A stretch of DNA of 64,000 nucleotides, taken from the sequence record MH355584.1. The stretch is one strand, 5' to 3'. Below the pieces are notes generated by a model that saw only the letters and a list, made by a program, of their open reading frames with translations, was not told the DNA's origin and did no database searches. The position numbers and the translations under genes are program-made. This document shows positions 29,763 to 30,447 of this stretch, piece by piece. Source of the DNA: Escherichia phage vB_EcoM_JB75. How positions within the stretch are numbered: the first letter of the stretch is position 1; every line of letters starts with the position of its first letter.

Positions 29763-29992
29763 TGTCTGAACAAACTATTGAACAAAAACTGTCTGCTGAA
29801 ATCGTAACTCTGAAATCTCGTATTCTTGATACGCAGGACCAAGCGGCTCGTCTGATGGAAGAATCCAAAATTCTGCAAGGAACTTTGGCTGAAATTGCTC
29901 ATGCAGTAGGTATCACTGGCGATACTATTAAAGTTGAAGAAATCGTTGAAGCTGTCAAGAATCTTACTGCTGAATCTGCAGATGAAGAATGA
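29762..29992 (+). CDS. 57A: tail fiber assembly chaperone gp57A
   Basis: 76 aa helical acidic protein directly after gene 1, overlapping stop/start. Confidence 0.8.
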
Positions 29993-30447
29993 TGGAATTT
30001 AAAGACTTTTCAACGGGTCTTTATGTAGCAGCTAAGTTTTCAGAATTAACACTTGACGCGCTGGAAGAACTCCAGCGCTCTTTACGTGTTCCTAATCCAG
30101 TTCCTAGAGAAAAAATTCATTCGACTATATGTTATTCAAGAGTAAATGTTCCATATGTTCCATCGAGTGGAAGTTTTGAAGTAGCTTCTTCTGGACATTT
30201 AGAAGTGTGGAAAACACAAGATGGATCGACTCTTGTACTTGTGCTAGATTCTGAATATCTGCGCTGTCGACACATGTATGCGCGGGCACTAGGTGCTACA
30301 CACGATTTTGATGATTACACACCGCATATAACATTGTCTTATAATGTTGGACCCTTATCATTTAGCGGTGATGTACAAATTCCGGTTGTATTAGATCGTG
30401 AATACAAAGAGCCTCTTAAACTCGATTGGGCAGATGATTTAAAATAA
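29989..30447 (+). CDS. 57B: 2H phosphoesterase gp57B (T4 homologue known as anti-CBASS nuclease Acb1)
   Basis: 152 aa; two H-x-[TS]-x motifs ([15 protein letters not shown]) typical of the 2H/LigT superfamily. Confidence 0.8.

Follow-up and report, generated by a model that had tools for sequence, protein, structure and literature searches.

Gene 57B and the block of genes upstream

The window, which is the whole stretch of 64,000 nucleotides that was analysed, contains at 29989..30447 on the + strand an open reading frame that runs from an ATG at 29989 to a TAA at 30447 (the stop codon is included in the end coordinate) and encodes 152 amino acids, two N-terminal methionines counted in. It is annotated here as acb1 (gene 57B). 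The T4 gp57B protein (AAD42501.1/NP_049750.1; AF158101 73952-74410) was used as the reference, and in the protein alignment 152 of the 152 residues were identical (100%). At the DNA level the gene differs from its T4 counterpart by 6 synonymous and 0 nonsynonymous changes, the former being located at the third positions of codons 23, 28, 73, 105, 121 and 133. Six silent changes without a single replacement indicate purifying selection on a gene that is intact.

acb1 is the last gene of the block gp3-gp1-57A-57B, in which gp3 lies at 28457-28984. Gene 1, encoding the dNMP kinase, is found at 29037..29762 on the + strand (Pfam PF21448 at 3.6e-106; 98.8% identical to T4 gp1) and is presumed to be the first gene of a 1-57A-57B transcription unit. 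It is followed on the same strand by the tail fibre chaperone gene 57A at 29762..29992 (+; Pfam PF17594 GP57 at 2.7e-50; 97% identical to T4 57A). Compared with T4, 57A carries an in-frame deletion of 12 nt near its 3' end (29971-29992), just before the overlap with the start of acb1, and its product has 76 aa versus 80 aa. The TGA stop codon of 57A overlaps the ATG of acb1 (ATGA). This overlap suggests translational coupling, and acb1 is likely to be coupled to 57A in this way. In T4, acb1 occupies the same position after 57A with the same ATGA overlap.

Two sites that resemble T4 promoters were recognised on the + strand, both by pattern match only. The first is a middle-promoter-like site upstream of gene 1 (28986..29011), which consists of a MotA box (AATGCTTCA), 11 nt and TATAAT. 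The second is the late-promoter-like TATAAATA at 29399..29406, which is situated within gene 1 and upstream of 57A and 57B. In T4, expression of 57B is mainly middle and late (PMC13478754), and the promoter-like sites at 28986-29011 and 29399 are consistent with this. It is predicted that acb1 is expressed in the window phage, probably on transcripts that it shares with genes 1 and 57A and that start at middle and late promoters.

Loss-of-function alleles of acb1 occur naturally among T4-like phages; in Bas43 the gene has a nonsense mutation, by which the phage escapes Panoptes. The possibility that the window carries a decaying or inactive copy of this kind is contradicted by an open reading frame that is intact, by a product identical to the active T4 Acb1 with silent changes only, and by the preservation of the ATGA coupling to 57A and of the promoter-like sites upstream. 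Pseudogenisation of acb1 was rejected at the sequence level, and we consider the chance of a dead copy to be next to nil.

The gp3-gp1-57A-57B order was kept in all six Straboviridae-type phages that were examined (Serratia, Krischvirus, Aeromonas, Acinetobacter, Vibrio and Cronobacter), whereas the genes 3' of acb1 differed in each of the six. This fixed order upstream and the variable genes downstream imply that acb1 occupies a fixed position at the end of a conserved block, beside a variable region.

Catalytic motifs and family assignment of the product

The window protein contains two 2H motifs, HSTI at residues 44-47 (30118..30129, + strand), which includes H44 and T46, and HITL at residues 113-116 (30325..30336, + strand), which includes H113 and T115. 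They aligned to the HTTI and HITL, respectively, in the Acb1 that Erwinia phage FBB1 encodes. It could be argued that both are chance H-x-T motifs in an unrelated small protein, as at least two H-x-[TS] motifs were present in 16% of composition-preserving shuffles of the window Acb1. Taken alone, the HSTI/HITL pair is weak evidence, and it is the homology that supplies the significance. This homology extends over the full length of Acb1 and puts both motifs on the catalytic positions of the crystal structure, and the motif residues are invariant across the family. A chance occurrence of the motifs was rejected on the homology to Acb1, and no weight whatsoever is given to it.

The full-length match was obtained with Pfam PF23474 ('Anti-CBASS protein Acb1'), which scored 202.7 bits (2.7e-60) against a cut-off of 27 bits, residues 9-150 of the protein corresponding to profile positions 1-144 of 144. 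Acb1 of PDB entry 7T26 was matched at E 4e-62 with both HxT motifs in register. A scan of NCBIfam yielded a family model neither for Acb1 nor for Acb2. FBB1 Acb1, which was crystallised as apo protein (7T26) and with a 3'3'-cGAMP analogue (7T27), shares 67.6% of 142 aligned residues with the window protein, and the alignment contains only one gap, of one residue. Its HxT/HxT tetrad and its equivalents of Y12, W74, F107, E141 and W147 align with those of the window Acb1. FBB1 infects a different host genus, and the window Acb1 has eight more residues at its N-terminus than the crystallised chain. From the 67.6% identity to 7T26 (residues 9-149) the window Acb1 is expected to fold as a compact 2H phosphoesterase that has a C-terminal lid; the model that AlphaFold2 built from the single sequence gave no usable information (pLDDT 37.9). 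A more distant Acb1 of 165 aa (PDB 9Q2G/9Q2Y) was found by a weak phmmer match (E 0.004). Its HVT and HLT align with the motifs of the window protein, whereas overall the two proteins show very little similarity.

The nine residues that Hobbs et al. named as catalytic or as contacting the ligand are all found in the window Acb1, including the base-stacking aromatics Y12, W74, F107 and W147 and the adenine-reading E141. They are retained because the sequence is identical to that of the T4 protein. Conservation was also followed in an alignment of nine sequences, which comprised the window Acb1, the FBB1 chain and the homologues of seven phages (Serratia Muldoon, Krischvirus Skers, Aeromonas 60AhydR15PP, Acinetobacter Berthold, Vibrio D482, Cronobacter JC03 and Salicola SCTP-2). 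Identity of the aligned homologues to the window Acb1 ranged from 68% down to 27%, and over this whole range H44, T46, H113, T115 and Y12 were invariant. When the phage collection was searched by tblastn, 1471 records contained Acb1, and in 445 of these the identity was at least 99%.

Function of Acb1 and evasion of CBASS

T4 gene 57B was identified by activity-guided fractionation of infected lysate as the degrader of 3'3'-cGAMP and was named Acb1 (Hobbs et al., 2022, Nature, PMC9117128). In the same study the mutants H44A and H44A/H113A were inactive, and T4 without acb1 was restricted by CBASS operons. [quoted passage not shown] Cleavage by the H44/T46/H113/T115 tetrad takes place 3' of adenosine, needs no metal and proceeds in two steps via a cyclic phosphate intermediate (PMC9117128). 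According to the HIDEN-SEQ preprint, 57B is dispensable on K-12 and is depleted from the transposon library on a CBASS host, which makes it conditionally essential. According to later literature, Acb1 also breaks down both 2'3'- and 3'3'-c-di-AMP, and Panoptes guard systems can be triggered by it. The sensitivity of Bas35-37 to type II Panoptes was attributed to a functional Acb1 (PMC13577387).

Another function is implied by the labels of related sequences. PHROG 755, which contains the window Acb1, is described as 'RNA ligase', and many of the GenBank relatives of acb1 are named 'hypothetical protein' or 'RNA ligase'. According to these labels and to 'RNA 2',3'-cyclic phosphodiesterase', which databases also use, the protein would be a LigT-like 2'-5' RNA ligase or such a phosphodiesterase, acting in phage RNA or tRNA repair, with cleavage of cyclic oligonucleotides being secondary. 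The distance of 1.7 kb between acb1 and the tRNA genes of the phage is in keeping with such a role, as are the 2',3'-cyclic phosphate intermediate of the Acb1 reaction and a weak Pfam match to 2_5_RNA_ligase2 (PF13563; E 0.11). However, this match covers only residues 81-123 and reaches 13 bits where the cut-off is 27. The LigT/2'-5' RNA ligase family has the superfamily fold and two HxT/S motifs in common with Acb1, but its substrates are RNA ends, whereas those of Acb1 are cyclic oligonucleotide immune signals. Moreover, it was the degradation of cGAMP that led from the T4 lysate to Acb1, deletion of the gene sensitises T4 to CBASS and the pocket is fitted to cyclic di- and trinucleotides (PMC9117128); an activity in RNA ligation or repair is not reported in the cited Acb1 literature. 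On the sub-threshold Pfam match and the literature, LigT-type RNA ligation was rejected as the primary function, and we regard it as very improbable. The 'RNA ligase' labels derive from membership of the 2H/LigT superfamily, not from experiments.

The biochemical and genetic work on Acb1 cited above was carried out with a protein whose sequence is identical to that encoded in the window. As read from its sequence, the region 29989-30447 is almost certainly the acb1 gene of a Tequatrovirus, with an anti-CBASS 2H phosphoesterase that cleaves cyclic nucleotides as its product. A sequence-only reading had given an open reading frame with HSTI and HITL at this position, and both its coordinates and its motifs were exact. 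It had also named the T4 homologue as the characterised Acb1, in agreement with the naming of T4 57B by Hobbs et al. and the identity of the window protein to it. In the alignment to T4 Acb1, which had been put forward there as a check, both catalytic histidines are kept along with the rest of the 152 residues. Given this identity, the reading as an Acb1-type nuclease is supported, and the word 'candidate' that was attached to it is too cautious. The finding is nevertheless already known, as the T4 enzyme of identical sequence has been characterised experimentally, and it contains no new biology.

In the infected cell the small, metal-independent enzyme would bind cyclic di- and trinucleotide signals with at least one adenosine, such as 3'3'-cGAMP, cUA, cAAA (cA3) and c-di-AMP. 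The four aromatic residues would stack on the bases and E141 would read the adenine N6, after which the C-terminal lid (residues 145-152) would shut over the ligand. By acid-base catalysis through H44, T46, H113 and T115, the 2'-OH would then attack the 3'-5' bond 3' of the adenosine, and the cyclic phosphate intermediate would be converted to a linear product bearing a 3' phosphate. With the second messenger destroyed, the CBASS effectors would not be activated and the phage would escape abortive infection.

A homologue of acb2 (T4 vs.4) is found at 41016-41282, which is 10.6 kb downstream of acb1 and thus not adjacent to it. It is 93% identical to its T4 counterpart and matched Pfam PF24729 at 1.3e-20. 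Residues Y8 and T68, to which published work assigns an important part in binding, are intact. Acb2 targets the same defence pathway as Acb1; however, it is an unrelated protein, a sponge that sequesters the signals whereas Acb1 cleaves them. As it carries both anti-CBASS genes, the window phage should evade many CBASS systems; it may on the other hand be vulnerable to Panoptes-type guards that sense the depletion of cyclic nucleotides. The value of the acb1 result lies chiefly in annotation and in the prediction of host range. The name acb1 is worth propagating, as most GenBank relatives still carry one of the two labels mentioned above.

The variable region downstream of acb1

Just 3' of acb1, at 30461..30499 on the + strand, a promoter scan and folding revealed an early-promoter-like TTTACA-N17-TACTAT that overlaps a stem-loop. 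The 13-bp stem-loop (30470-30499) has a folding energy of -17.4 kcal/mol and a z of -3.56. The hairpin was not called an intrinsic terminator in a generic terminator scan, because a T-run is absent after it. Therefore, it is described here as a PeSL-type promoter/stem-loop and not as a proven terminator. In T4-type phages PeSL elements have the PST/T4 consensus TTTACW-N17-TAYWAT (PMC4122927), which the promoter/stem-loop repeats of the window match. Such repeats are located at 30461-30499, 30792-30829 and 31089-31128. The 14-mer GTGATACTATTACC is present in four exact copies in the window (30480, 30811, 31109 and 49862) versus 0.44 expected, the last of which (49862-49875) stands apart from the three repeats. 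These first three bracket the IP-like cassette genes 3' of acb1, one repeat preceding each cassette, and the element at 30461-30499 marks the boundary between acb1 and the variable IP cassettes.

The first IP-like gene (30521-30778; 85 aa) belongs to phrog_3499 'internal head protein' and the second (30855-31088; 77 aa) to phrog_8111 'internal virion protein'. Pfam contained no family for either product. With T4 IpI they have only an N-terminal leader MKT[FY][KQ]EF in common, and the identity of the first cassette to IpI amounts to 25-28%. In T4 the promoter/stem-loop 3' of acb1 is the same as in the window up to where the following gene begins. There, however, the following gene is ipI, whereas in the window ipI is absent and its slot is filled by these two different IP-like genes.

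The T4 arrangement, in which acb1 adjoins ipI encoding a GmrSD inhibitor, was taken by Hobbs et al. (2022, PMC9117128) to fit an anti-defence island. The sequence-only reading had proposed that counter-defence functions are concentrated around acb1 in the window as well. For T4 this neighbourhood is indeed published; in the window, where ipI has been replaced, the claim is supported only in part. The IP-like cassette proteins may plausibly be counter-defence factors.

Three further open reading frames encode a comparable leader. Two of these, at 33340-33813 (MKSYAQFLNEA) and 33939-34502 (MKTYAEFLTEA), lie in a stretch without a counterpart in the T4 loci that were compared, and the third (38940-39413; MKTYQEFITEA; DUF7412) is found at the T4 position of ipIII, ipII and denV. 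As a tentative proposal, which we think is rather more likely to be wrong than right, the two IP-like genes at 30521-30778 and 30855-31088 and the open reading frames starting at 33340, 33939 and 38940 might encode injected inhibitors of host defences that have not yet been paired with a phage counter-measure, acb1 anchoring the fixed edge of an array of swappable anti-defence cassettes.

By sequence comparison the window is assigned to a Tequatrovirus close to Bas36/Paracelsus, and not to T4 itself. The acb1 region is 99.6-99.8% identical to that of phages such as WL-3 and Bas36/Paracelsus, and the Acb1 of Bas36/Paracelsus is identical to the window Acb1. Several differences from T4 were observed outside acb1. 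The tRNA cluster at 32118-32949 comprises ten genes (Gln, Leu, Gly, Pro, Ser, Thr, a Met/Ile-type with CAT, Tyr, Asn and Arg), whereas that of T4 has eight genes with the homing endonuclease gene segB inserted; Tyr and Asn are the additions in the window. A tblastn search of the window with T4 segB, denV and ipIII gave no match, and with T4 ipII only a weak one (33% identity). Endonuclease V (denV) appears to be missing at its T4 position (38972-39424 in the window). T4 vs.5, vs.8 and e.2 each matched the window in two separate pieces (40802-40976, 39455-40103 and 37395-37684), which points to indels or altered frames in comparison with T4. Finally, the - strand carries at 25436-25933 a second sequence that resembles lysozyme and has 43% identity to T4 e; judging by where it lies with respect to genes 4 and 53, this is presumably the gp5 lysozyme domain.
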